A program made the translations under genes and the position numbers. Positions 1-43,765 of a stretch of DNA of 43,765 bases are shown one piece after another (the stretch's first letter is position 1; each line of letters opens with the position of its first letter). The notes beneath the pieces are model-generated. The model was not told the origin of the DNA and searched no databases. It saw only the letters and a list, made by a program, of their open reading frames with translations. The DNA lies in IMG/VR virus record IMGVR_UViG_2917865565_000001, positions 1-43,765 of that record; one strand, given 5' to 3'. The DNA comes from a virus. Taxonomy: Duplodnaviria > Heunggongvirae > Uroviricota > Caudoviricetes.

Positions 1-597
1 ATGGGAACTGGGGTACAGGAAAGACTCACTTTATCAGAAAAAAAATTTCCCAAGTACTATGATAAAAACATTTTCTATTATATTTCTTTACTAGGTATTA
101 AATCCTTATCAGATTTCAAAGCTAAAATTATAGATTGTTACTACCTGCAAGATATACAAACATTTAAATCCGGGCTCGAAAGTCTATCAGGAATAGGTAG
201 CATTGCCAGCGGCTCACCTGCAAGTGCCAATATTATTAACAGCATGTTTAATTCTATTGGTGCAAGTGTTAGAGAAAACATTTTATCAAAACTGGATGGT
301 ATTTTTATATTGGATGATATAGAGAGAATATCCGAAACATCATTAGTTAGTGAAATTTTGACATATTGCCATTCTCTTTATATGTCCGAGATGAACTCAA
401 ATTTAGACTTTATTATTATTACCAATACATCAACTGAGTCTGGTTTAAAAATAGAACACAAGGAAAAACTCATTGCAGAAACACTTCATTATAATCCGCA
501 TCCAGAGGAAATATTGGATATAGATATAATAAATGGAAAGCTTTCCCAATTCCCACAGGAAGATAAAATTCTCTTTGAGGATATAGTAAAAAAATAA
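1..597 (+). CDS. C-terminal part of a P-loop/ABC-like NTPase, probably 5'-truncated by the window edge
   Basis: 198-aa ORF in AT-rich DNA; Walker-B-like GIFILDDIE followed about 25 aa later by hydrophobic strand IIITNTS; no Walker A in the window. Confidence 0.35.
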   Translation: MGTGVQERLTLSEKKFPKYYDKNIFYYISLLGIKSLSDFKAKIIDCYYLQDIQTFKSGLESLSGIGSIASGSPASANIINSMFNSIGASVRENILSKLDGIFILDDIERISETSLVSEILTYCHSLYMSEMNSNLDFIIITNTSTESGLKIEHKEKLIAETLHYNPHPEEILDIDIINGKLSQFPQEDKILFEDIVKK

Positions 598-622
598 CAA
601 CATAGTTAACATCCGTATTTTG

Positions 623-1666
623 ATGCGTATTTTGGACACAGCTACGCCATTATATGAATACGTTAAATCATATCCTCATCTTTCTTGGAGAATACCATCA
701 ACAATTCTTTTAAACTCAATATGCTCTTTCTTCATTTTATTATTTTTGCATAATCACTCTCTTGAGGAGCTTCTCAAGGATCAAGATCCAACATTTTTAT
801 TAAACACCGAGGAATCAAGTGATAGTGAGAGAGTGCTATGGTTAGCATTGAATAATTACAAAATAAAACCTGAGATTAAAAGGTATTATAGCGGACAAGC
901 TTCATTAAATGACATATTGGATGTTTTGTTTTATGAAGCAAAACCGCTTACTATGAGAGAAATTGCAATATCAGTACGTCCAGAATTACATGAGATAAAT
1001 GAAAAGGAACTTTCAAATACACTTGTCGACTTAATTTGCCGTAAGATTGATTGTAATTTCTATGAATGGATAAAAGCGTTTCAGAATTATGAGTATTTAA
1101 CCACACATAAATACCTACCAAAATCACCAATTATAACTCTAAAGTTTGTCACTTCGATTCTGAACGGATTCACTGACAATGAAGTTGCAGAATGCTTTGA
1201 GCTATACTCACTTGATAGAAAAAATAGCTTAAATAGTGGTTTTGAAGATAGCAAATTGCTGTACTCAATTTCATTTTACCGTTATAAAAGCACGATCAAA
1301 ATGCGTGAGCTCAACACTATTAGGTTGCAATTAGAATTGAATGGCTGGGCATCATTCAATGCTAACCAATTAACCACTTTAGATCCATTCGGAAATTATA
1401 AGCCGCTTGAAGTGCTTGGTGTATCATTTGTAACAAAATGCGTTTTAAAGAATTGGGCAGTTAATGATATTGAGCAATTTAGTTCTTTCTTGCGTAGCAA
1501 CTATCAAATCAGCAACATAAAACAATTCGCCACTAATGAAAAAAACAAACTTATTTATCTTAGTCAAAAACTTGATATTTTTTGCCTTTCCTATAAAGAA
1601 AGCTTTAAATTTGGAGCCATATACGATCTAAACAGAACAGTTAAAATTGCCATTAACAAATTATGA
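623..1666 (+). CDS. hypothetical protein, AT-rich cargo gene
   Basis: 347-aa ORF from ATG at 623 (track starts at in-frame TTG 620), 23 nt after the upstream ORF; Asn/Lys/Tyr-rich; no motif recognised. Confidence 0.4.
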   Translation: MRILDTATPLYEYVKSYPHLSWRIPSTILLNSICSFFILLFLHNHSLEELLKDQDPTFLLNTEESSDSERVLWLALNNYKIKPEIKRYYSGQASLNDILDVLFYEAKPLTMREIAISVRPELHEINEKELSNTLVDLICRKIDCNFYEWIKAFQNYEYLTTHKYLPKSPIITLKFVTSILNGFTDNEVAECFELYSLDRKNSLNSGFEDSKLLYSISFYRYKSTIKMRELNTIRLQLELNGWASFNANQLTTLDPFGNYKPLEVLGVSFVTKCVLKNWAVNDIEQFSSFLRSNYQISNIKQFATNEKNKLIYLSQKLDIFCLSYKESFKFGAIYDLNRTVKIAINKL

Positions 1667-2148
1667 GAACATCCACTTTACCAAAAAATCATTTTTTTGG
1701 TGGGGTAATACCTGGCGATTAACAAATCTGAAAACAAAGCTCTAATACAGCGGCGAAAGCATGATTTACTTGTGTATATTTAGTTCAAGACGTGCTTCGC
1801 CGTGCATCTCTCACTATTTCCCTCCAGAGCAACATTAAAATACTTCATATAATATAGATATAAGTATCATCTAGCCAAAAACCATTTGAATCCACATGCA
1901 TTCCAGCTTTTATTGATACTCTATCTGATATATCATCCCACCAATTCAGCCATTAATGCTATGACAGGAATTCTAGTTATTCATCATTTTGAGCTGATGA
2001 TGTAATAACGCAACTTATTAATATCTAATGTTTTTTCACTCACCCCTATTACTTCTGTGGCGCTTGCAAAAAAATCATTCAGTCTGAAGCAGGTAATTAA
2101 TCTCGCCACTTACTATCAGTTTCGGGAAAGTACACTAAACATGCTTTT

Positions 2149-2442
2149 TCACCCAAGATTAACTAACCGCCAGACCAGCAGACACGCCACCACCGGCACA
2201 GCAAAATCCATCAGGCTTGCCACATCCCATGCACGTGGATCAAAACCGCCCCACCACGGCATATTCATACGCTTGCCATGCCCGAACATTTCAATCCAGC
2301 GATATTCTGCCTGGGTGTGTTCGCGCGCAATGAAGAACGTACAACCAGCTATCGCCCCGTAAGCCCAGTTTCCGGTAAAAAGGCCAATCAGCACCTGCGC
2401 AGCCACAGCACAAAGCGCATGAAGGAAAGGTGTTATATCCAT
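2149..2442 (-). CDS. small integral membrane protein
   Basis: Internal ATG preceded by AAGGAGG with 4-nt spacer; 97 aa with hydrophobic segments and Gly-rich helix; track ORF starts at upstream GTG 2466. Confidence 0.5.
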   Translation of the reverse strand: MDITPFLHALCAVAAQVLIGLFTGNWAYGAIAGCTFFIAREHTQAEYRWIEMFGHGKRMNMPWWGGFDPRAWDVASLMDFAVPVVACLLVWRLVNLG

Positions 2443-2455
2443 TACTCCTCCTTTA

Positions 2456-3157
2456 TCAGATATCACTTCGGGAAGTTGATAACAACTTTAATTCTGACTC
2501 AAGTTCATCAACTCTTTCAGTCAGTTTCTGGATATGGTGAATCAGTGGAACAACCAGACGTTCGTACATTACACCTTCGGCAACAAGGCCATTGCTGGAA
2601 ATAGCTTCCGGAGCATCATTCTCGTTAGCTGGTCGCCAGTGTACAAACTGAGGGGCAATTTCTCCAACTTCCTCGGCAATCAACCCGTAGAATCCCCAGT
2701 CACGCCTGTCATTTTCGCATTGCGACCTGTACCACACAGGGCGCATCTTGAAAATGAGATCGGCGTGCTCTGAATCTATCGTCTCTACTGAATGTTTATA
2801 GCGGATAGACGATGTTGACCGCAGCACAGACGAAATTGCGGGGTCAGGATTAAGATAAAGGTTTGCCGCCGCTGTAGTCGTGCCCAATCCCCACAAATAA
2901 AACGCTTCACGACCAGTCAGCGGGTAAAAATCTCCACCATAACGACCACTTTCCAGATCGTTCACTTCCACTTTGTTTTTCAGCTTATTATCAACTTCAG
3001 TTTTTGTGTATCTGGAGCTGATATCCTGCTTTGCACTGGTCATCTCAGTCTGAAGCGTTGATACTTTTCCGTTAATTGAGGAAATATCTTCCTTAGCTTT
3101 ACTGACATCTCCCTTTAGCGTGGTAATGTCTCCCGGAATTACTGTCGATGTAGCCAT
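2456..3157 (-). CDS. tail-fibre-associated protein with C-terminal intramolecular chaperone (peptidase S74-like) signature
   Basis: 233 aa; N-terminal coiled region; C-terminal SSIRYKHS, FYGLIAEEV and VMYERLVVPLIHHIQKLTERVDELESEL match the S74 chaperone pattern. Confidence 0.5.
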   Translation of the reverse strand: MATSTVIPGDITTLKGDVSKAKEDISSINGKVSTLQTEMTSAKQDISSRYTKTEVDNKLKNKVEVNDLESGRYGGDFYPLTGREAFYLWGLGTTTAAANLYLNPDPAISSVLRSTSSIRYKHSVETIDSEHADLIFKMRPVWYRSQCENDRRDWGFYGLIAEEVGEIAPQFVHWRPANENDAPEAISSNGLVAEGVMYERLVVPLIHHIQKLTERVDELESELKLLSTSRSDI

Positions 3158-3166
3158 TTTTCTTCC

Positions 3167-3448
3167 TCACATCCAGCCACGAAGTTGATGCTCAACAGCA
3201 ACCACGTATTCATCGAATATTGACGGTGTTTTCACATCATTAATGATGCGCACGTTTACAAAATATCCGTCTTCCTTAACACATACCGGTTCGCCATCTT
3301 CATTCAGTTCTCCGGTTTCTTTGTACACGTTACCTATCACGTCAATAAGAATATCATCCTGCATCGACTCGTCATCATAATAGCCAGTGCTATCCATAAA
3401 GGCCGAAAAGTCGGCCTTGTCTGCAAATTTGAGTGTTAAATCTTTCAT
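3167..3448 (-). CDS. hypothetical protein in tail-fibre module
   Basis: 93-aa ORF, start overlaps stop of upstream ORF (ATGA coupling). Confidence 0.4.
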   Translation of the reverse strand: MKDLTLKFADKADFSAFMDSTGYYDDESMQDDILIDVIGNVYKETGELNEDGEPVCVKEDGYFVNVRIINDVKTPSIFDEYVVAVEHQLRGWM

Positions 3449-4641
3449 TAGATTGACTCCCCCATCTGAGCATCAGTCAATGCCTTGTGCCATATTCTGA
3501 AATTCCTGATATGACCAAATAAATGACGTAATCCGGCTGTAGTCTGGCCTCCAATACGGATAATTGCGGTGCTCTGAATATAGGACCATGTGGTTTTTGT
3601 TTCGCTGGATATACGCCCGTTACTTACTGCGCATGTAGACTGATCAGACTTTACACGCATCCCCATAACCATTTTTTCAAGTGATGCTTTTTCGTTTATC
3701 CGTCTGTTAGACCCACCAATATCGCAATAAGGAAATCCGTCGTAATCTGCTGAAGAACCGAAGCCAAGAATAATAGCCGCTCCGGTTTGATGACCGCCGG
3801 TATCAAAAACACGCGGTGCTGCATTTGGCGTTTTATACCAGTTCTTATGTACCTCACAAAGAACCGTAAAAGGAAGATTATAAAGATTATTCTTAATTGG
3901 GACTGTAACTATATCGCTTGCCCGTGTTACCGGTGCAGCCCCCGTAACAATAAAAGATGATGCGCCTGTACCAGCCTCAATCTGGGGAGTGGTTACATCG
4001 AGACAATCCCCTGATGCCACCATCTGACCTGTATCCGGAGAATACTGGACGAAACCACCAACCGTATTTTCTGTTGTATCTGCTTTTAATGTAGCCTCAA
4101 AAAATATCCAGCCAGTTGCATCATCCTTAACAGACCTTGCTGTAACACGGCTTGTCTGACCCGTCTTGCTAATTATGCGGGTGGTAAGGTTCAGGCTTGC
4201 TGTTCCTATTGATGTCCTTACTTCCCCATCATAATGTTCAAATAAAATACGAACGGCGATATTATCAACTTCACTTTTTACCCGGCAGGATATAGTTACA
4301 TACTTTTCGTCACCTGAAGTATCAACCCCACCGGTACTTGAATACAGCCCTATAATGGTATGCGCTTTACTTGTGCCAACAATCGAATCCTGTACGACAA
4401 ACCGGCCATAATTAAAACCGAAACTATCTGTGCCTGTTTCTGTAACGTCCAGTGAAGTTGACTTATTCCACTTCGAAGGGTCTGTACTGTTCGGGAAGAA
4501 GTTCGTTCTTTGCCCCTCAATAAGCAGGCCATCACGTTCAAACCGTGGCTCGTCAATGGCAGCCTCTGTCAGCACACCAGATTTATTAATGTAAGTTGCT
4601 TTCGATGCGCGTTTAAACTTTACAATCTTGTCGCCAGGCAT
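3448..4641 (-). CDS. side tail fibre, distal portion (non-lambda); probably once continuous with the stf ORF upstream
   Basis: 397-aa ORF; its frame stays open upstream through the T8 run (…KKIVIGDDEITMPGDK…). Confidence 0.5.
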   Translation of the reverse strand: MPGDKIVKFKRASKATYINKSGVLTEAAIDEPRFERDGLLIEGQRTNFFPNSTDPSKWNKSTSLDVTETGTDSFGFNYGRFVVQDSIVGTSKAHTIIGLYSSTGGVDTSGDEKYVTISCRVKSEVDNIAVRILFEHYDGEVRTSIGTASLNLTTRIISKTGQTSRVTARSVKDDATGWIFFEATLKADTTENTVGGFVQYSPDTGQMVASGDCLDVTTPQIEAGTGASSFIVTGAAPVTRASDIVTVPIKNNLYNLPFTVLCEVHKNWYKTPNAAPRVFDTGGHQTGAAIILGFGSSADYDGFPYCDIGGSNRRINEKASLEKMVMGMRVKSDQSTCAVSNGRISSETKTTWSYIQSTAIIRIGGQTTAGLRHLFGHIRNFRIWHKALTDAQMGESI

Positions 4642-4648
4642 TGTTATT

Positions 4649-5833
4649 TCATCGTCGCCAATAACAATTTTTTTTATATGATGGCGAAAAGCCCGTAATC
4701 ATATCCAATGAATCGTTAAACGGTATCCACACATCGGGAAGCGGCTGCAAAACTTGTTTATACGGCTCCGCAGCCTGGCTTGCATACTCTCTGGCTGCGT
4801 CTTCACTTGCTTTTGCAGCCGTCTGGCTTGCAGCGGATGCTTTCGCCGAGTTAGCCGCCGCAGTCTCGCTCGCCTTTGCGTTGGTTTCACTGGTTTTTGC
4901 AGCTTTTTGACTGTTGGCAGATGCAGTGGCAGAAGTAGCCGCCGCACTTGCAGAACCGGCTGCGGCACTTTCGCTTTGGGCCGCTGCATCCTGACTGTTT
5001 TTCGCCGCAGTTTCGCTGGCTTTGGCATTCGTTTCGCTTATTTTCGCTGCCGTCTGGCTGGACTTTGCGTTAGTTTCACTCGTCTTCGCAGCTTTCTGGC
5101 TGTTAGCCGCAGCAGTTGCTGATCCAGCTGCTGAAGTCGCAGAACCGGCTGCAGCACTCTCGCTTTCGGCTGCTGCATCCTGACTGCTTTTCGCCGCAGT
5201 TTCACTGGCTTTGGCATTCGTTTCGCTTATTTTCGCTGCCGTCTGGCTGGACTTTGCGTTAGTTTCGCTCGTCTTTGCGGCTGTCTCACTGTTTTTCGCG
5301 TTGGTTTCTGATTTTTTGGCAGCTGTCGCGGAGTTTGCCGATGCAGTCTGCGAGGACGCTGCCGCCTGTGCGCTGTTAGCTGCATTCGTTTCTGAGGTTT
5401 TCGCCGCGTTCTTCGATGATGCCGCTGCAGTTTCGGATTTCTTTGCCGCCGCTGCGCTCTGAGAGGCGGCTTCGGCGTTGCGTGCCGCTTCTTCCACCAT
5501 TGCCTCAAAACGACGCAATGCCTCCGGCATGACATCATCTTCCGTCATGGCACCGAGAAAATCATTCAGCGTACCTGGTCTGGAACCTTCATAGACGGTA
5601 ATGGTCCCGGCATGTGAAGGCGGAAAACCTTCAACCAGCAGGGTGACGCTGTACTGACCATACTCAACATCCATGCTGTAACGCCCGGCTTCATCCGGAT
5701 TTTCAGAGGCCACCGTGTTCACCAGTACCGTGGTGCTGTTACGCTTTGCCTTCAGTTGAATAGTGCAGTTCTGTATTGGTTTTCCCGCACCATCTTTCAG
5801 CACACCTGAGATTTTTACTGCTGCCATATCCAC
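4649..5833 (-). CDS. stf: side tail fibre Stf, N-terminal portion
   Basis: N-terminus MAVKISGVLKDG… and VEYGQYSV…GFPPSHAGTITVYE match lambda Stf; followed by Ala/Ser/Thr-rich repeats; ends in out-of-frame tail after homopolymer. Confidence 0.7.
   Translation of the reverse strand: MDMAAVKISGVLKDGAGKPIQNCTIQLKAKRNSTTVLVNTVASENPDEAGRYSMDVEYGQYSVTLLVEGFPPSHAGTITVYEGSRPGTLNDFLGAMTEDDVMPEALRRFEAMVEEAARNAEAASQSAAAAKKSETAAASSKNAAKTSETNAANSAQAAASSQTASANSATAAKKSETNAKNSETAAKTSETNAKSSQTAAKISETNAKASETAAKSSQDAAAESESAAAGSATSAAGSATAAANSQKAAKTSETNAKSSQTAAKISETNAKASETAAKNSQDAAAQSESAAAGSASAAATSATASANSQKAAKTSETNAKASETAAANSAKASAASQTAAKASEDAAREYASQAAEPYKQVLQPLPDVWIPFNDSLDMITGFSPSYKKNCYWRR
4940..5320. repeat. tandem duplication of about 189 bp inside stf (two 63-aa A/S/T-rich copies)
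   Basis: Near-identical DNA blocks about 190 nt apart (gcatcctgactg…ttcgcagc); protein repeat KTSETNAKSSQTAAKISETNAKASETAAK… twice. Confidence 0.6.
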
Positions 5834-5891: not shown

Positions 5892-6491
5892 TCAGAATTT
5901 ATAACCGACACCCACGATAAAACCGTCAGTGCGCCAGTCGCCACTGCCGGAGCCTTCATAAGCAAGGTCAATGGCCACGGATTCGGTCGGGTTAAACTGC
6001 ACGCCAGCCCCCCACGCCAGAGACGTGTTGCTGTGGCGACCGTCATCACTTCCGGTCAGCACATCGTGCGTTTTCCCCTTGTTATCAGTTACGCGGAGAT
6101 AATCCCCGGAGAAAGTCGACACACGGCTGTAAGCCACACCCGCCATCGCATAAGCACTGAACCATTCATTCACGCGCACAGATGGCCCCGCCATCATGCT
6201 GAACCAGCGGTTACGCACTGAATCTTCATGCCAGCGGGTATCGCTGTAACGGGTAAGCTGGCGATTCTTGTCTCCTGCATAGCTGAATGACGTCACCAGC
6301 CCCAGCGTGTCCGTAAATTCATAACGGTATTTCACGTTAATGCCCTTCAGGTCATCGTTGCCGGGCATATCTGTATGGGACTGAAGATACCCGGCGCTTA
6401 GTGTGGACTGATGCTCTGCTGCACTCGCTGGCGTACCAGCGGCGACCAGCCAGACTACTGCAGACAGAATAACAGCACATAATTTACGCAT
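5892..6491 (-). CDS. lom: outer-membrane protein Lom (Ail/Lom family)
   Basis: 199 aa with signal peptide, beta-barrel-like sequence ending GYKF, position after J as in lambda. Confidence 0.85.
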
Positions 6492-6558: not shown

Positions 6559-9500
6559 TCAACTGATACTGATACCGGCTGTTGATTTCTTCATCACGAC
6601 AACAAGAAGGTCGCTGATACTGGTCGTTGGCGTCCAGTTATTAGCACCATATGAAGAAACATTGAAAGTCAGGGTGACATGACCGTGTCCGGCAGGCATA
6701 TCAATGACGGATGAAAATACCCTGCTGACATCCGTCGCGGGTTGCTGAAAGATTTCCTGTCCGTTCTTCAGCACCTGCAGCTTACAGGTTGAATACCAGT
6801 ATGACTGTTGGTTGTTGCTGTTGAAGTTTTCATGCTTACCACCGCGAAACAGAACAGGTGGGATTACTATCTGACGGTCAAAAGCCTGATCATCGTACAC
6901 AGTGACCGTTATTGTACCGCTGGCATAACTGCCATTTCTCGGAAAGGCTTTTCCCACCGTTTTGACAATATCACCTTCAATCTGGTTGGCAGACAGTTTT
7001 CCCAGAATCAGACAGTTCTGGTTAATCGTGACATTATTGAGCGTCCCGGAGTTCGCATTCACGTTACCGCTGATATCGGCATTTTTCGCCGTCAGCCGCC
7101 CGTCCGGTGTCAGGGAAAATACCGGAGGATTGCCGCCGCTGGTAATGGTGGGAGCCGTCAGATACTTCAGGAACACTTCGTTCATGAATATCTGGTTGCC
7201 CTGCGCCACAAACATCGGCGTTTCATTCCCGTTTGCCGGGTCAATAAACGCGATACGGTTAGCGGCAACCAGGAACTGGCTCAGTTTGCCTTCCTCCGTA
7301 TCCTCCATGCTGAGGCCAAGCCCCGCGACATAATGCCTGCCGTCTTCGGTCTGCTCAATTTTGACGCCCCACATGGCATTCCATTTATCGTTGGCGTCTT
7401 TCCACTCTTTCGAAAACTCCTCCAGTTTGCTGGCGTTATCCTCCGTCAGCTCGACTTTTTCCAGCAGCTCCTTGCCGAGATGGGATTCGGTTATCTGGCC
7501 TTTGAAAAAATCCAGGTAACCTTCCGCATCATCGCTCGCCCGACCGACAGCCTCCACGAATGTCGATTTGCCGACGGTGTTCACACTGCGAACGTAAAAA
7601 TAATAATCATGGCCCGGTTTGATATTGATACTGGCGGCTATCCAGTACAGCGCCGTGCCAAGATAGCGGGCTGTGGTTTCAACCTGCCTGATATCCGCAA
7701 TCCGCTTTTCCGAGAACCAGAACTCAAACTGTACCGTCGGATCATAAACGGCAAGATGCGGCGTGGCGGTTATCTGAAAATAGCCCGGCGTCAGCTCAAT
7801 CCGCGACGGCGCTGCCGGTGCGGCAATCCGGAACGATACCGATGCCGGATCGCCCTGCTGCCCCCAGGCATTTGCCGCCCGGACTGTCAGCCTGTAGTTT
7901 CCCAGCGCCAGTTGCGTGAAGCGGTATGTGGTTTCCGTCGTCCGGGCCGTGCTGACCAGCCGCTCACTGCCGTCATCCGCTGCCACGGTCAGGCGAAGCA
8001 TAAAGCTCACACCCTTCACCACCTTCGGCGTATCCCAGCGCGCCAGCACCTGGTATTCCCCGCTGTCTGCGGTGACTTCTGCGGTCAGGTGCTGCACCGC
8101 TGGCGGCGTGACACCATTCACCGTGCCGCTCTGGTCGCCGTCAAAGTGCGCCCCGTTATCCACGATGGCCTCTTTCTCCGGCACATGCTGCACAGCGGTG
8201 ATGGCATACGTGCCGTCGTCATTCTCACGGATACTCACACAACGGAACAGGCGCTGGCGCAGCGTCGGCAGCTTCAGCCCCCACACGCTGTACTCGGCAA
8301 CGCCGTCAGGAACCCGGCTCACTTTCACCTTCACGCCGTCGGTGACGGACTGGACCTCCACGCTGACCGGATTCCCCTGCCCGTCAACCAGGCTTATCAG
8401 CGTGGTGCCGGAGGATGGCAGCGTGATTTCTCGGTCGAGCGTCAGCGTCCGGGTCTGGCTGTTCACCGCCAGCACACGCCCGCCGATGCTGATCCCCGCA
8501 TAGTCATCATCACAGATTTCAATGACATCACCCGGTACATGGCGAAGCCTTCTGCGCCCACGCTGAAGTCCACGGTCTGCGTTTCCAGCAGCTCCGTTTT
8601 AATCAGCCACAGCCCGGCGCGGTGTGCCTGCCCCCGGCTGGTACAGCCAAAGGCATCCATCTTCGTGACGTTGCGACCGTAACGGAGAATGGCCTGCGTA
8701 TCTTCAACAAGCTCTGTCGCCGTCTCCCAGCCGTTATTCGGGTCAATCCAGTTCACCTCAATGGCATTATGGCGGTCCTTCAGGGCGCTGAAGCTGTAGC
8801 GGAACGGCGCGCCATCATCCGGCATCACCACATTACTGCGGTTATAGGTCCACACCTTATCCGACGGTCGGTCCTGCACGAACGTCAGCGTCTGCCCGTT
8901 CCATACCGGCATACAGCGCATCGCCGAGCAGAAATCACTGAGAACATCCCACGCCTTACGCTGTGTGGTCAGGTAGGCATTACAGGTGATGCGCGGCTCC
9001 GTGCCGCCAAAACCGTCCGGCACCGACTGGTCGCAATACTGGCCGATGACATACAGCGCCCATTTATCCACATCTGCCGCACCAAGACGTTTACCCATGC
9101 CGTAGCGCGGGTGGGTCAGCATATCCCACAGACACCAGGCCATGTTGTTGCTGTATGCTGGCTTAAACGTTCCGTCCCAGATACCGCTGTATTGCCGCGT
9201 CTGCGGGTTATAGTTCGACGGCACCTGCAGAATGCGCCCGCGAAGATGATAATTACGGCTCACCTGCTGGCTGCCGAACTGTTCCGAGTCCACCTGCACG
9301 CCGACCAGTGCCGTGTTCGGGTAGCACAGTTTCACATCGATGATTTCGGTGTATGACGACCAGAGCGTTTTGTTCTGCAGCTGGTCTGTGGTGCTGTCCG
9401 GCGTCATCCTGCGCATCCGGATATTAAACGGGCGCGGCGGCAGGTTACCCACCACCACCGAGGCCAGATACTGCGAGGTAGTTTTGCCCTTAATGGTGAT

Positions 9501-9956
9501 GTCTTTTTCCGTCACCCAGCCACCGTTACGCTGTATCTGAACCAGCAGGCGGACTTCCGACGGATTCCGGTCTCCCTTTGAGGTGGTTTCCACCAGTGCC
9601 TGCACACCGAAGGTAAAGCGCAGACGGTCGATGTTTGCCGACGTGATGGTCCGGGTGATCGGCGTGTCATATTTTACTTCCGTACCCAGCACCGTCTCGG
9701 ATCCGGAGGATTCAAAACCCTCCGGCGGTGTCTGCTCCTGCTCACCTGCCCGGAACACCACCGTGACACCGGCGATGTTGGTATTCCCTTCACTGTCCAG
9801 CACCGGCGTACTGTTCAGCAGCACGCTTTTTAATCCATCCACCGGACCTTCTATCGGCCCTTCGCTGATGGCATCGATCACACTCAGTAACTGCGTGGAT
9901 TTCAGGTTGTCCTTCGCTTCGCGCGGGGTATGCCCCTTACTGCTGCCTTTACCCAT
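6559..9956 (-). pseudogene. J: tail tip / host-specificity protein J, reading frame interrupted
   Basis: Two ORFs (8463..9956 and 6559..8475) in different frames together cover lambda J; first ends in junk tail [23 protein letters not shown], second frame reads [29 protein letters not shown]. Confidence 0.8.
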
Positions 9957-21029: not shown

Positions 21030-24711
<3,682 letters not shown>

Positions 24712-25840: not shown

Positions 25841-26199
25841 ACATCCCGGTTTCTTCCACCATCGCACCGGAAAAGCGACTATGAGGGTAACCCTGCGTCT
25901 GTCAGCACAGTAAAACCCGGTGTGCATCGTTTTTGATTATTCCCGCACACTCACGCAGAAGGAATTCCCCGTCGGGCTACGGTCATGGTTAATGCGGGAA
26001 TACGGCGACGATACAGCGCAGCTAAAAGGGTAATGGACAGAAAGAGCGGTTTATTTCATTCCACAGGATTCTGAGTGCCCCCCTCCTCCAATAGGCTGAG
26101 CATCCACCTATATAGTTTTAATTTTCATCAATCCATTTAACTATCGTTTAATTGTTGTCACATAGGATTCTGCCGTTTTTAACAATGCAGGATAATAAG

Positions 26200-26493
26200 A
26201 TGAAAAAAATGTTGTTTTCTGCCGCTCTGGCAATGCTTATTACAGGATGTGCTCAACAGACGTTTACTGTTGGAAACAAACCGACAGCAGTAACACCAAA
26301 GGAAACCATCACCCATCACTTCTTCGTTTCGGGAATTGGACAGGAGAAAACTGTTGATGCAGCCAAAATTTGTGGCGGCGCAGAAAATGTTGTTAAAACA
26401 GAAACCCAGCAAACATTCGTAAATGGATTGCTCGGTTTTATTACTTTAGGCATTTATACTCCGCTGGAAGCGCGTGTGTATTGCTCACAATAA
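26200..26493 (+). CDS. bor: Bor lipoprotein (serum resistance)
   Basis: 97 aa from MKKML…ITGCAQQTF lipobox; matches lambda Bor. Confidence 0.85.
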   Translation: MKKMLFSAALAMLITGCAQQTFTVGNKPTAVTPKETITHHFFVSGIGQEKTVDAAKICGGAENVVKTETQQTFVNGLLGFITLGIYTPLEARVYCSQ

Positions 26494-35880: not shown

Positions 35881-36180
35881 ATGACAGTAGTCATTACATA
35901 TCTGGCTGACGATAACGCCAGAAATCGCCGCAGAGCACGCAGACAGGCTCAACGTGAACAGGCAATGAATGAACAGCGACTGGCGCGGAAGATTGCGCTA
36001 AAGCTCTCTGGTTGCGTCAGAGCAGACAAAGCAGCATCACTTGGCAGCCTTCTCTGCAAGAAGGCAGATGAAGTCGAGCGTAAACAGAACCGTATTTACT
36101 ACCGCAAGCCACGCAGCGAAATGGGTGTGACTTGTGTTGGTCGCCAGAAAATGAAATTAGGCAGCAAACCACTTATTTGA
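35881..36180 (+). CDS. N: N-like transcription antiterminator
   Basis: 99 aa; arginine-rich motif NARNRRRARRQAQRE; C-terminus matches lambda/phage-21 N. Confidence 0.8.
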   Translation: MTVVITYLADDNARNRRRARRQAQREQAMNEQRLARKIALKLSGCVRADKAASLGSLLCKKADEVERKQNRIYYRKPRSEMGVTCVGRQKMKLGSKPLI

Positions 36181-36188
36181 GGTGATAT

Positions 36189-36275
36189 ATGGAAGAAGAA
36201 TTTGAAGAGTTCGAAGAGCATCCGCAGGATGTGATGGAACAATACCAGGACTATCCGTATGACTACGACTATTGA
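36189..36275 (+). CDS. 28-aa highly acidic peptide (MEEEFEEFEEHPQDVMEQYQDYPYDYDY), overlaps ral start
   Basis: GAGGTG SD 5 nt upstream of ATG; below ORF-track cutoff; may correspond to lambda orf28. Confidence 0.3.
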   Translation: MEEEFEEFEEHPQDVMEQYQDYPYDYDY

Positions 36276-36459
36276 TAAAAATCAATGGTGTGGACAATTC
36301 AAGCGATGCAATGGATGCAAGCTGCAATCGGAATGCATGGTTAAGCCTGAAGAAATGTTTCCTGTAATGGAGGATGGGAAATATGTCGATAAATGGGCAA
36401 TACGAACTACGGCAATGATTGCCAGAGAACTTGACAAACAGAAAAACAAGGCTGCCTGA
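36259..36459 (+). CDS. ral: restriction alleviation protein Ral
   Basis: 66 aa, matches lambda Ral. Confidence 0.85.
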   Translation: MTTTIDKNQWCGQFKRCNGCKLQSECMVKPEEMFPVMEDGKYVDKWAIRTTAMIARELDKQKNKAA

Positions 36460-36595
36460 TGGTGGCCTTTATTTTTGGCATAAACAACAGAATAAACACT
36501 GCACTGTGTATTCATTCCAACAAGTGAATACACGGAGCAATGTCGCTCGTAACTAAACAGGAGCCGACTTGTTCTGATTATTGGAAATCTTCTTT

Positions 36596-36623
36596 GCCCT
36601 ACAATGTGAGGGCAGTTTTTTTT
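36596..36623 (+). terminator. rho-independent terminator (tL-type) downstream of ral
   Basis: GCCCT-ACAATGTG-AGGGC hairpin followed by T8. Confidence 0.6.
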
Positions 36624-36928
36624 GACGGAGTAAGCGATGATAAAAAACTGATTACCCTGCAGAACTTAAACAAAAAGTAATAACAGCAATTAAATGCTCT
36701 TTTATCTCATGTCGTACAGATGAAGAACGATATGTCGTTGAGTGTGCAATTGTCGAGTTTCTCACAGCGATGGAATTTACCGCCGCAGAATCAATAGACG
36801 TATTAAAGCAATCAGACGGAAATGATATTGAAACAGATGATGTTATTGACCGACTAATAAAATCATTCGAAGAAGAAATAGAGTAACTGCCAAGCGCAGC
36901 TTTAACACCTGCCAATGACGGAGGAATT

Positions 36929-37345
36929 ATGGAAATTACAGATATCCTGGTTAATCCAGATAATTACGACCAATTCAATATCTCTACTCAATCAGTTGAT
37001 TTGGGATGTGCAACTGTCAGCGCATGGCTACTTAATGGTAAACAGTTGGATAAATGCCTTGATGCACATATGACGGTTAACAGCTTCCTTGCAGAAAAGA
37101 CACACTGGCAAGATGCTGGAGGGAAATATGCTGGATGGCTTGAAAGCATGGGATTTGAATATCAATCTGATGAAGGTTGGTGGAGCCTTATAGCTGTAAC
37201 GCCTGAGACAATAGAATGCTTCGTTAAATACTCAAACGACGATGACTATAAACACCAGGTGGATTCTGCGATAGAAAGATACAAAAGAAAATCGTTCAAC
37301 CACGAAATATCATCAGTTCTTGATTTCATAGAAATCTTCAAATAA
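36929..37345 (+). CDS. hypothetical acidic protein at the sieB-equivalent position
   Basis: 138-aa ORF with GGAGG-like RBS (gacggaggaattATG). Confidence 0.5.
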   Translation: MEITDILVNPDNYDQFNISTQSVDLGCATVSAWLLNGKQLDKCLDAHMTVNSFLAEKTHWQDAGGKYAGWLESMGFEYQSDEGWWSLIAVTPETIECFVKYSNDDDYKHQVDSAIERYKRKSFNHEISSVLDFIEIFK

Positions 37346-43534: not shown

Positions 43535-43765
43535 ATGACAATCAATATTCAGCCGATTCTAATAAACCGCGAGCGTGTTCAGGAGATGCTTGGTGGTATC
43601 TCCAGAACTACTTTTTACCGGAAGCGTAAACAGTGGGAGCAATCAGGGACACCATTCCCTCGGGAAGTGGAAGAAATCCACCCACCGAAAGGCGGCGCCC
43701 TCTTTCGCTACAAGGAAGTTATTCAGTTTTGCAAAGATAAAGGATTGATTTCCGAACACTCTTGA
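43535..43765 (+). CDS. putative excisionase / AlpA-family HTH protein
   Basis: 76 aa ending at the window edge; basic HTH-like segment ISRTTFYRKRKQWEQ; position at distal end of pL operon. Confidence 0.4.
   Translation: MTINIQPILINRERVQEMLGGISRTTFYRKRKQWEQSGTPFPREVEEIHPPKGGALFRYKEVIQFCKDKGLISEHS

Follow-up and report, generated by a model that had tools for sequence, protein, structure and literature searches.

The closest described relative of the gene considered here is Reve, a single-gene anti-phage system found in P4-satellite hotspots (bioRxiv 10.64898/2026.02.27.708500, 2026 preprint). The supplement to this preprint reports the ATPase module of human ORC as the top Foldseek match of Reve, together with matches to PF07693 and PF13401 (bioRxiv 10.64898/2026.02.27.708500). 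If the construct pFD425 is taken as Reve on account of construct order, i.e., because it lies between Toga (pFD424) and Hailong (pFD426), plating of the Drexlerviridae phages Bas01-Bas13 is lowered to values from 2.5e-6 to about 2e-2, corresponding to a drop of up to about 10^5-10^6-fold, while lambda and Bas18 are unaffected (bioRxiv 10.64898/2026.02.27.708500). Enterococcus is defended by other KAP NTPases made of a single chain, in which the C-terminal region is uncharacterised; one of them, EF_KAP, depends on its Walker B motif as well as on this region, and its protection is not abortive (PMC13552941). PifA is also a stand-alone protein of the KAP superfamily, without the transmembrane helices that are typical of many KAP proteins (PMC13001434). 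In addition, the closest known systems include STAND/AAA+ sensor ATPases (Avs) as well as AAA+ proteins of the initiator clade (ORC/Cdc6, TnsC, MuB).

The DNA analysed here, hereafter the window, is a stretch of 43,765 nt of a Caudoviricetes genome, and its first 1,666 nt carry most of a gene for a KAP-type NTPase. Reve, in the form of the 586-aa translation of the synthesized sequence Syst.19_UnknownSys7, aligns by BLASTP with the intact allele of the window strain almost end to end (29% identity, residues 6-574 versus 4-570, 591 columns, E=2e-62), and its residues 2-578 match the profile built from the NTPase family with E=2e-116. Because of these two full-length matches, the window gene is considered a member of the Reve family. 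Both proteins are of similar length, share the same Walker A, Walker B, and N-x-R motifs, display PF07693 and PF13401 signals and an ORC-like fold match (as reported in the preprint for Reve), and are encoded by single genes carried as cargo by mobile elements of enterobacteria. They differ in their location, i.e., a P4 hotspot for Reve versus an att-adjacent position in lambdoid and P22-like prophages for the window gene, and in two segments proper to the window protein, a Gly/Ser/Ala-rich insert and a hydrophobic helix, neither of which is conserved in Reve. At 29% identity, function and phage specificity of the two proteins may differ as well.

The Enterococcus KAP proteins, set beside the window protein by description, also consist of a KAP NTPase followed by ~320-350 aa without known domain and act alone; EF_KAP is however modelled with two transmembrane helices, whereas no more than one hydrophobic segment is present in the window protein, and this segment is not conserved. 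The similarity to PifA, which is encoded by the F plasmid and involved in T7 exclusion, concerns the G-x-W-G-x-G-K-T Walker A motif, the stand-alone nature of the gene and its presence on a mobile element, but PifA is a protein of 741 aa rather than 580. Membership in the PifA group was dismissed, as hhalign aligns only 30 columns around Walker A (probability 58%) and the PADLOC PifA model gives no match. Among profile collections, three PADLOC models of PDC-S49 match the intact allele (best E=7e-16, profile positions 23-311 of about 620), and phrog_4740 of PHROG matches the N-terminal NTPase half (E=8e-18). Both sets of profiles have a length comparable to that of the window protein (619-629 and 627 positions, respectively), but the matches end at about residue 250-290 and leave the C-terminal domain uncovered. 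Reve shows the same N-terminal-only pattern against PDC-S49, and a PDC-S49 match is present in all but one of 49 family representatives. The PDC systems are computational candidates, and no report of an experiment on PDC-S49 was found. An earlier reading of the window, made from the sequence only, had proposed an undescribed system at this locus; this label has to be given up, since the gene is annotated in RefSeq, is matched by PDC-S49 and phrog_4740, and has a family member tested in a 2026 preprint.

A single NTPase gene read as two

In the window as read, two co-oriented ORFs are found on the + strand, at 1-597 and 620/623-1666, with a gap of about 25 nt, and the sequence-only reading had taken them for a two-gene cassette. 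The two frames do exist, but alignment with intact alleles shows that 1-1666 is one gene, encoding a 580-aa single-chain NTPase, with two +1 changes. A megablast search with positions 1-2000 retrieved this DNA from 71 of 5,426 complete E. coli genomes (95-99.5% identity, chromosomal every time), and a single 580-aa CDS (WP_000877736.1, "P-loop NTPase fold protein") spans the whole stretch in 69 of these 71; in strains A3 and A26, the gene appears as split in the annotation. The window begins 79 nt into the gene, so that 26 codons plus one base are missing, and the earlier suggestion that the N-terminus lies upstream was thus correct. Compared to the intact alleles, each of two A-runs carries one extra A, and the gene is consequently read in frame 3 (nt 3-45), then frame 1 (46-594), and finally frame 2 (595-1666, with the stop codon at 1664-1666). 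This is why Walker A, ORF1, and ORF2 lie in three different frames, and it explains both the apparent split and the seeming absence of Walker A. The latter had been described as lacking, and is in fact encoded at the very start of the window (Table 1); likewise, the supposedly separate 347-aa protein of ORF2 is the C-terminal 60% of the protein to which ORF1 belongs. Deletion of one A per run restores an uninterrupted 553-aa frame, 100% identical to residues 28-580 of WP_138158680.1.

Table 1. Coordinates of the NTPase gene and associated features at the start of the window
Feature	Position (nt)	Strand	Basis or remark
KAP-type P-loop NTPase gene, Reve family, 580 aa	1..1666	+	Lone CDS in relatives; repaired frame; Pfam
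Walker A GNWGTGKT, residues 28-35	3..26	+	Read in frame 3; conserved in homologues
A8 homopolymer, first frameshift	38..45	+	A7 in intact alleles, A6 in strain A3
Gly/Ser/Ala-rich insert between Walker A and B, residues about 83-116	169..270	+	Alignments, structure model
Walker B strand and next motif, GIFILDDIER (D131, D132, E134, R135)	298..327	+	
Strand DFIIITNTS (N168 nearly invariant)	406..432	+	Position of sensor 1 of AAA+ ATPases
A7 homopolymer, second frameshift	588..594	+	A6 in intact alleles; makes the apparent ORF1 stop, 595-597
C-terminal part, residues about 225-580: N229-x-R231 helix, hydrophobic helix, all-alpha domain	595..1663	+	
Non-coding, AT-rich spacer (35% GC), with the NTPase gene on one side and the convergent phage late genes on the other	1667..2148		

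As for the AT-rich character already pointed out for this region, it is confirmed by a GC content of 31.8% for 1-1666 versus 51.7% for 2149-43765. The spacer that follows the gene belongs to the same low-GC block, which extends in related genomes from the att site on the thrS side to the first gene of the tail region. No gene is annotated in this spacer in related genomes, and a search for RNA elements in 1-3000 and at the thrS-side junction gave Rfam matches below threshold only, none reaching the gathering score.

Several observations bear on the origin of the two extra nucleotides. The products of the broken ORFs are on record for Escherichia sp. E2562, as WP_240783019.1 (198 aa) and WP_240783020.1 (347 aa) from a 510-kb contig, and the intact 580-aa protein (WP_138158680.1/TLI79769.1) is recorded for Escherichia sp. 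E2562 as well, on a 188-kb contig. When run lengths are compared with those of the 97-98% identical prophage of strain WP5-S18-ESBL-07, 6 of the 25 A/T runs of at least 6 nt across the window are longer by one nucleotide, versus a length change in a single one of 218 runs of 4-5 nt; inside the NTPase gene, 2 of 7 long A/T runs are changed, again by +1. Changes of this type also affect genes of the phage body: a +1 at 4675 splits the side tail fibre gene and a +1 at 22361 cuts the N-terminus of the portal protein, while a -1 C at 8549 splits J. This bias in homopolymers is one-directional, depends on run length and is evenly spread over essential and accessory genes, which argues for a technical cause. 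The split is hence most likely an assembly error, and it is very likely that the stretch holds one NTPase gene broken in this way. A false lead is thereby removed, in that no new two-gene system is present, and any other "split gene" of the window should be distrusted, given that homopolymer errors also break the portal, J, and tail-fibre genes.

Domain organisation and conservation of the protein

The N-terminal part of the protein consists of a P-loop domain of the KAP type, whose AAA+ fold is ORC/Cdc6-like. The Pfam KAP_NTPase family (PF07693) matches residues 7-169 of the intact allele with 29 bits, for a cut-off of 20 (E=8e-7), and AAA_22 and TsaE are found below cut-off. ORF1 and ORF2 as read, each taken alone, give no Pfam or PADLOC match; a scan of the intact allele against NCBIfam gave no significant match, and a search of solved structures by sequence gave none that is meaningful (best E=0.045). 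With respect to fold, the NTPase resembles the DNA-loading AAA+ proteins of the initiator clade, i.e., ORC/Cdc6, TnsC, and MuB. The Walker B motif originally recognised in ORF1 was called correctly, as GIFILDDIER is part of this P-loop ATPase. The assignment made from the downstream IIITNTS strand, taken as the H-loop strand of ABC/AAA_21 ATPases, needs to be revised, as the strand is placed where AAA+ ATPases have sensor 1. An assignment of ORF1 to the ABC, AAA_15, AAA_21, or OLD groups was rejected, with no such match in Pfam; of the families for which a profile search had been advised, among them AAA_15, AAA_21, OLD, and KAP_NTPase, only KAP_NTPase was returned above cut-off.

Conservation was read from two alignments, A2 (32 homologues) and A4 (49 homologues). 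In both of them, G28, W30, G31, G33, and K34 of Walker A, D131, D132, and R135 of the Walker B region, as well as K182, N229, and R231, are invariant; T35 is invariant or nearly so, E134 is invariant in A2 and nearly so in A4, and for E181 and W382, invariance is complete in one alignment and nearly complete in the other. Judging from these motifs, the P-loop/AAA+ module of the window protein looks catalytically competent. The Gly/Ser/Ala-rich insert is kept among enterobacterial orthologues and modelled with low confidence. The hydrophobic segment, the only one of its kind in the NTPase, covers residues 257-275 (nt 692-748, Kyte-Doolittle mean of 2.09), and corresponds to a helix at residues 259-274 in the AlphaFold2 model. 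An output at the membrane through these two elements was envisaged, but this idea is weakened by the fact that neither of them is conserved in Reve. The C-terminal all-helical domain, of about 350 aa, does not match any enzyme fold, and no nuclease, protease, TIR, SIR2, or pore domain was found in a search for effector domains.

A first search for homologues yielded 38 clusters, nearly all of about 580 aa, from Escherichia, Citrobacter, Enterobacter, and Cronobacter. With a profile searched against 1.84 billion representatives, this number rose to 249 clusters at E<1e-30, mostly matched end to end and 550-640 aa long, and to 5,746 clusters at E<1e-10. Clustered at 50% identity, the NTPase family thus counts no fewer than 249 clusters, which are of similar length and come from several phyla, with distant members in Proteobacteria, Streptococcus, and Clostridia.

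Position in thrS prophages and neighbouring genes

On the other side of the spacer, the minus strand carries a small phrog_1443 gene, followed by the tail-fibre genes, Lom, and J of a lambdoid phage. In related genomes, homology with K-12 stops 135 nt upstream of the thrS start codon, and the thrS-espL1 interval is occupied by a prophage, which is P22-like in strain A3 and lambda-like, and close to the window, in strain WP5-S18-ESBL-07. In both prophages, the end next to espL1 carries one and the same tyrosine integrase (WP_001196928.1), while the NTPase gene occupies the end next to thrS. The two prophage ends share an identical 23-nt att core, ACACGAAAGATCACATACAAAGA, which lies 28-50 nt before the ATG of thrS; after the thrS-side core comes a version of the host leader region that is carried by the phage and has diverged. 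The NTPase gene thus lies inside the prophage, where ~600 nt separate it from the att site and the tail genes are convergent with it, and it would adjoin attP and int in a circular phage genome. The window itself ends with the stop codon of an excisionase-like ORF, the integrase being located beyond it. This integrase is found in 73 genomes and the NTPase gene in 71, in lambda-like as well as P22-like prophages, which indicates joint transfer of the two genes in an otherwise mosaic phage. The view of the region as cargo beyond the tail-fibre genes, at the position of a moron, is therefore upheld and can be refined to prophage cargo adjoining the att site. The check for presence in related prophages that had been called for gives the same 71 of 5,426 complete genomes, so that the gene occupies this att-adjacent moron position in about 1.3% of complete E. 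coli genomes.

A partner gene was looked for in several ways. In the E. coli loci, no adjacent co-oriented partner is annotated; upstream of the NTPase gene, the 600 nt between the att site and the start codon contain only ORFs of less than 50 aa, and promoter and terminator scans performed no better than on shuffled sequence. The contexts of homologues are diverse. In Citrobacter amalonaticus (70% identity), the gene is found at the end of a lambdoid prophage in the order SRAP, NTPase, umuC, umuD, dinI, tail fibre, and J, and in Cronobacter (60%) it is a lone gene in a chromosomal islet. A 58%-identical homologue adjoins smpB and a prophage remnant, again with umuCD, while another one at 39% identity is found with SRAP, umuCD, and a resolvase, in the order SRAP, NTPase, umuCD, resolvase. 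Lastly, a 30%-identical homologue is carried by an AlpA-type island, between a colicin/immunity pair and an IS element.

More distant relatives, of at most 25-30% identity, were followed at 38 loci among the matches listed. The 150 neighbouring ORFs of these loci include no recurring family, the commonest neighbours among these matches being phage integrases and HTH_3 proteins, with 4 each. Known defence genes are scattered near the distant homologues in the matches listed, such as PDC-S06, Olokun OloB, SIR2, type II methylases, GajB, or SoFic; by counts from a crude ORF caller, this is suggestive of a modest enrichment. Taken together, these contexts identify the gene as a stand-alone cargo gene of mobile elements.

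Probable defence role and alternative explanations

The intact NTPase protein is likely to function in anti-phage defence, by analogy with Reve. A defence role had been put forward before, and it is plausible in view of the full-length homology with a tested system, but not in the form of an ATPase-plus-effector cassette. Altogether, the preferred explanation combines one gene split by two extra A, its carriage as prophage cargo, and a stand-alone defence function of the Reve type inferred for its product, and it can be given a probability of about 0.7. This would extend the Reve/KAP-type family of single-protein defence systems, so far tested only from a P4 satellite, to a prophage-borne branch.

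Pairs of an ATPase and an effector are common among defence systems, and the two ORFs about 25 nt apart in the window as read could at first sight be such a pair, i.e., an ATPase and a 347-aa effector acting as two separate proteins. This proposal is now hardly credible: the ORFs adjoin each other within a single protein family whose members, from Enterobacteriaceae to Streptococcus, have a uniform length (550-640 aa), the first ORF has no Walker A of its own, neither fragment alone matches Pfam or PADLOC, and no conserved neighbour is seen among the matches listed. The same two ORFs would also result if the frameshifts were genuine, either in a decaying pseudogene or in a phase-variable (contingency) gene turned off by slippage in an A-run. 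Allelic diversity speaks for it, as first tracts of A6, A7, and A8 all occur among different genomes, a shortened 217-aa allele of the NTPase is present on 43 contigs, and split genes are annotated in A3 and A26, as mentioned above; furthermore, other prophage genes of the window are interrupted, as they would be in a degrading prophage. True frameshifts are nevertheless very unlikely, because the intact 580-aa protein of the same organism is what the repaired window sequence encodes, and because the changes in A/T runs are all +1, are limited to runs of at least 6 nt and occur at a uniform rate in the gene and across the window. As to a selected switch, both A-tracts are absent as a conserved feature from the orthologues of other genera, which argues against phase variation, and the idea of a contingency locus was abandoned on this ground.

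Another possibility accepts the intact gene but not its anti-phage role, and attributes it instead to a DNA-damage or SOS-linked module, to lysogenic conversion, or to plasmid or phage maintenance. This is consistent with the location of the gene between SRAP (YedK-like) and umuDC, near dinI, in Citrobacter and two enterobacterial loci, with a fold akin to that of the initiator-clade AAA+ proteins that load onto DNA, and with the lack of a recognisable effector domain. However, SRAP and umuDC are absent from the thrS prophages of E. coli, from Cronobacter and from the colicin-linked island, the distant homologues have no common neighbour among the matches listed, and the homologue Reve on its own confers a strong anti-phage phenotype. 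A role of the intact protein other than defence thus appears unlikely.

If the defence function is accepted, Reve, EF_KAP, and STAND proteins suggest by analogy that the helical C-terminal domain would sense a phage component, and that the ATPase would act as a nucleotide-dependent switch leading to an active, probably oligomeric state. Since no effector domain is present, the ATPase assembly itself would probably produce the output, either by using ATP to bind or remodel a phage component or by consuming ATP; any particular output is nonetheless much less probable than the defence role as such. The confident structure model, the invariant catalytic residues and the lack of an effector domain make the protein a tractable case for the question that the family poses, namely how an ATPase with only a helical domain might block a phage.

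A broader proposal would be that Reve-type proteins form a class of effector-less immune ATPases, in which an ORC/Cdc6-like AAA+ module with a private helical sensor would arrest infection by assembling in an ATP-driven manner on a phage component, such as phage DNA or a protein involved in replication or injection, and would leave the cell alive. In the thrS prophages, the NTPase gene, attP and integrase would in addition constitute a portable block that, upon insertion, takes the place of the leader and promoter of thrS, an essential gene, and thereby alters its regulation. In this combined form, the proposal is quite unlikely; if true, defence cargo and changed regulation of host thrS would be inherited together. 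We infer mobility of the NTPase gene with infectious phage from prophages only, as a DNA search and tblastn found no copy of it among the sequenced genomes of the phage collection. In plasmids, the gene is represented by one Enterobacter copy and one weak Vibrio match.

Homopolymer lengths and the limits of the window

Homopolymer lengths differ systematically between the window and the 97-98% identical lambda-like prophage of E. coli strain WP5-S18-ESBL-07, and three phage genes are split or lose their N-terminus at such sites (see table). Any gene that appears "split" or "truncated", anywhere in the window, thus needs to be compared with its relatives before being accepted as such. The window itself looks like a prophage prediction bounded by gene calls. 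Position 1 coincides with the start codon (ATG) of artefactual ORF1, a piece of the KAP-type NTPase gene, and position 43765 with the end of the stop codon of an excisionase-like ORF (43535-43765). The integrase gene lies outside these limits, as do the 79 nt with which the NTPase gene begins.

Features of the window and of related loci
Feature	Coordinates	Strand	Remark
Side tail fibre gene	4649-5833 + 3448-4641		split by +1 T at 4675
J gene	8463-9956 + 6559-8475		split by -1 C at 8549
Portal gene	22361		+1 A; N-terminus lost
Other homopolymer-length differences	19332; also 2074, 1734		same comparison
Small hydrophobic protein	2149-2466	-	phrog_1443 (function unknown), E=6e-58
Lom/Ail-family outer-membrane protein	5892-6491	-	known lambdoid moron
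Bor/Iss-type lipoprotein	26152-26493	+	known lambdoid moron
Second low-GC stretch	35881-37345	+	~41% GC; early-left region
SRAP / NTPase / umuC-umuD neighbourhoods	L006:9302-13792, L012:9259-13468, L016:10001-13566		enterobacterial loci

Integration in the thrS leader

The att site of the prophage lies upstream of window position 1, within the 5' leader of the essential gene thrS (L004:305-560 and L004:39600-39960 in E. coli strain A3, whose P22-like prophage shares the NTPase gene and the integrase with the prophage of WP5-S18-ESBL-07). Its 23-nt core, ACACGAAAGATCACATACAAAGA, is located 28-50 nt upstream of the thrS ATG. On the thrS side of the prophage, a diverged, phage-borne copy takes the place of the host's own leader and promoter, and thrS autoregulation may therefore be altered in lysogens. 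Next to int, and again in this thrS-side copy, lies a 28-nt sequence, AAATTGGTACACAATTTGGTACACAAAT, which may be an integrase binding site.

Neighbourhood and alleles of the NTPase gene

In Citrobacter and at two other enterobacterial loci, homologues of the NTPase gene are preceded by an SRAP (YedK-like) gene and followed by umuC-umuD, with dinI also close by in Citrobacter. The E. coli thrS prophages lack this recurrent SOS-type neighbourhood. A truncated 217-aa allele of the E. coli gene (P0184, C-terminal end ...FPQEDKIR) is recorded on 43 contigs, and natural inactivation may therefore occur in some lineages.

Other accessory and small genes

The window carries two known lambdoid morons (see table). 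The second low-GC stretch contains small ORFs with no assigned function, such as 36929-37345 (138 aa), which are possible further accessory genes. The phrog_1443 gene, the final gene of the tail-fibre cluster, faces the NTPase gene and is kept in both lambda-like and P22-like prophages, where it adjoins different tail fibre or tailspike genes.
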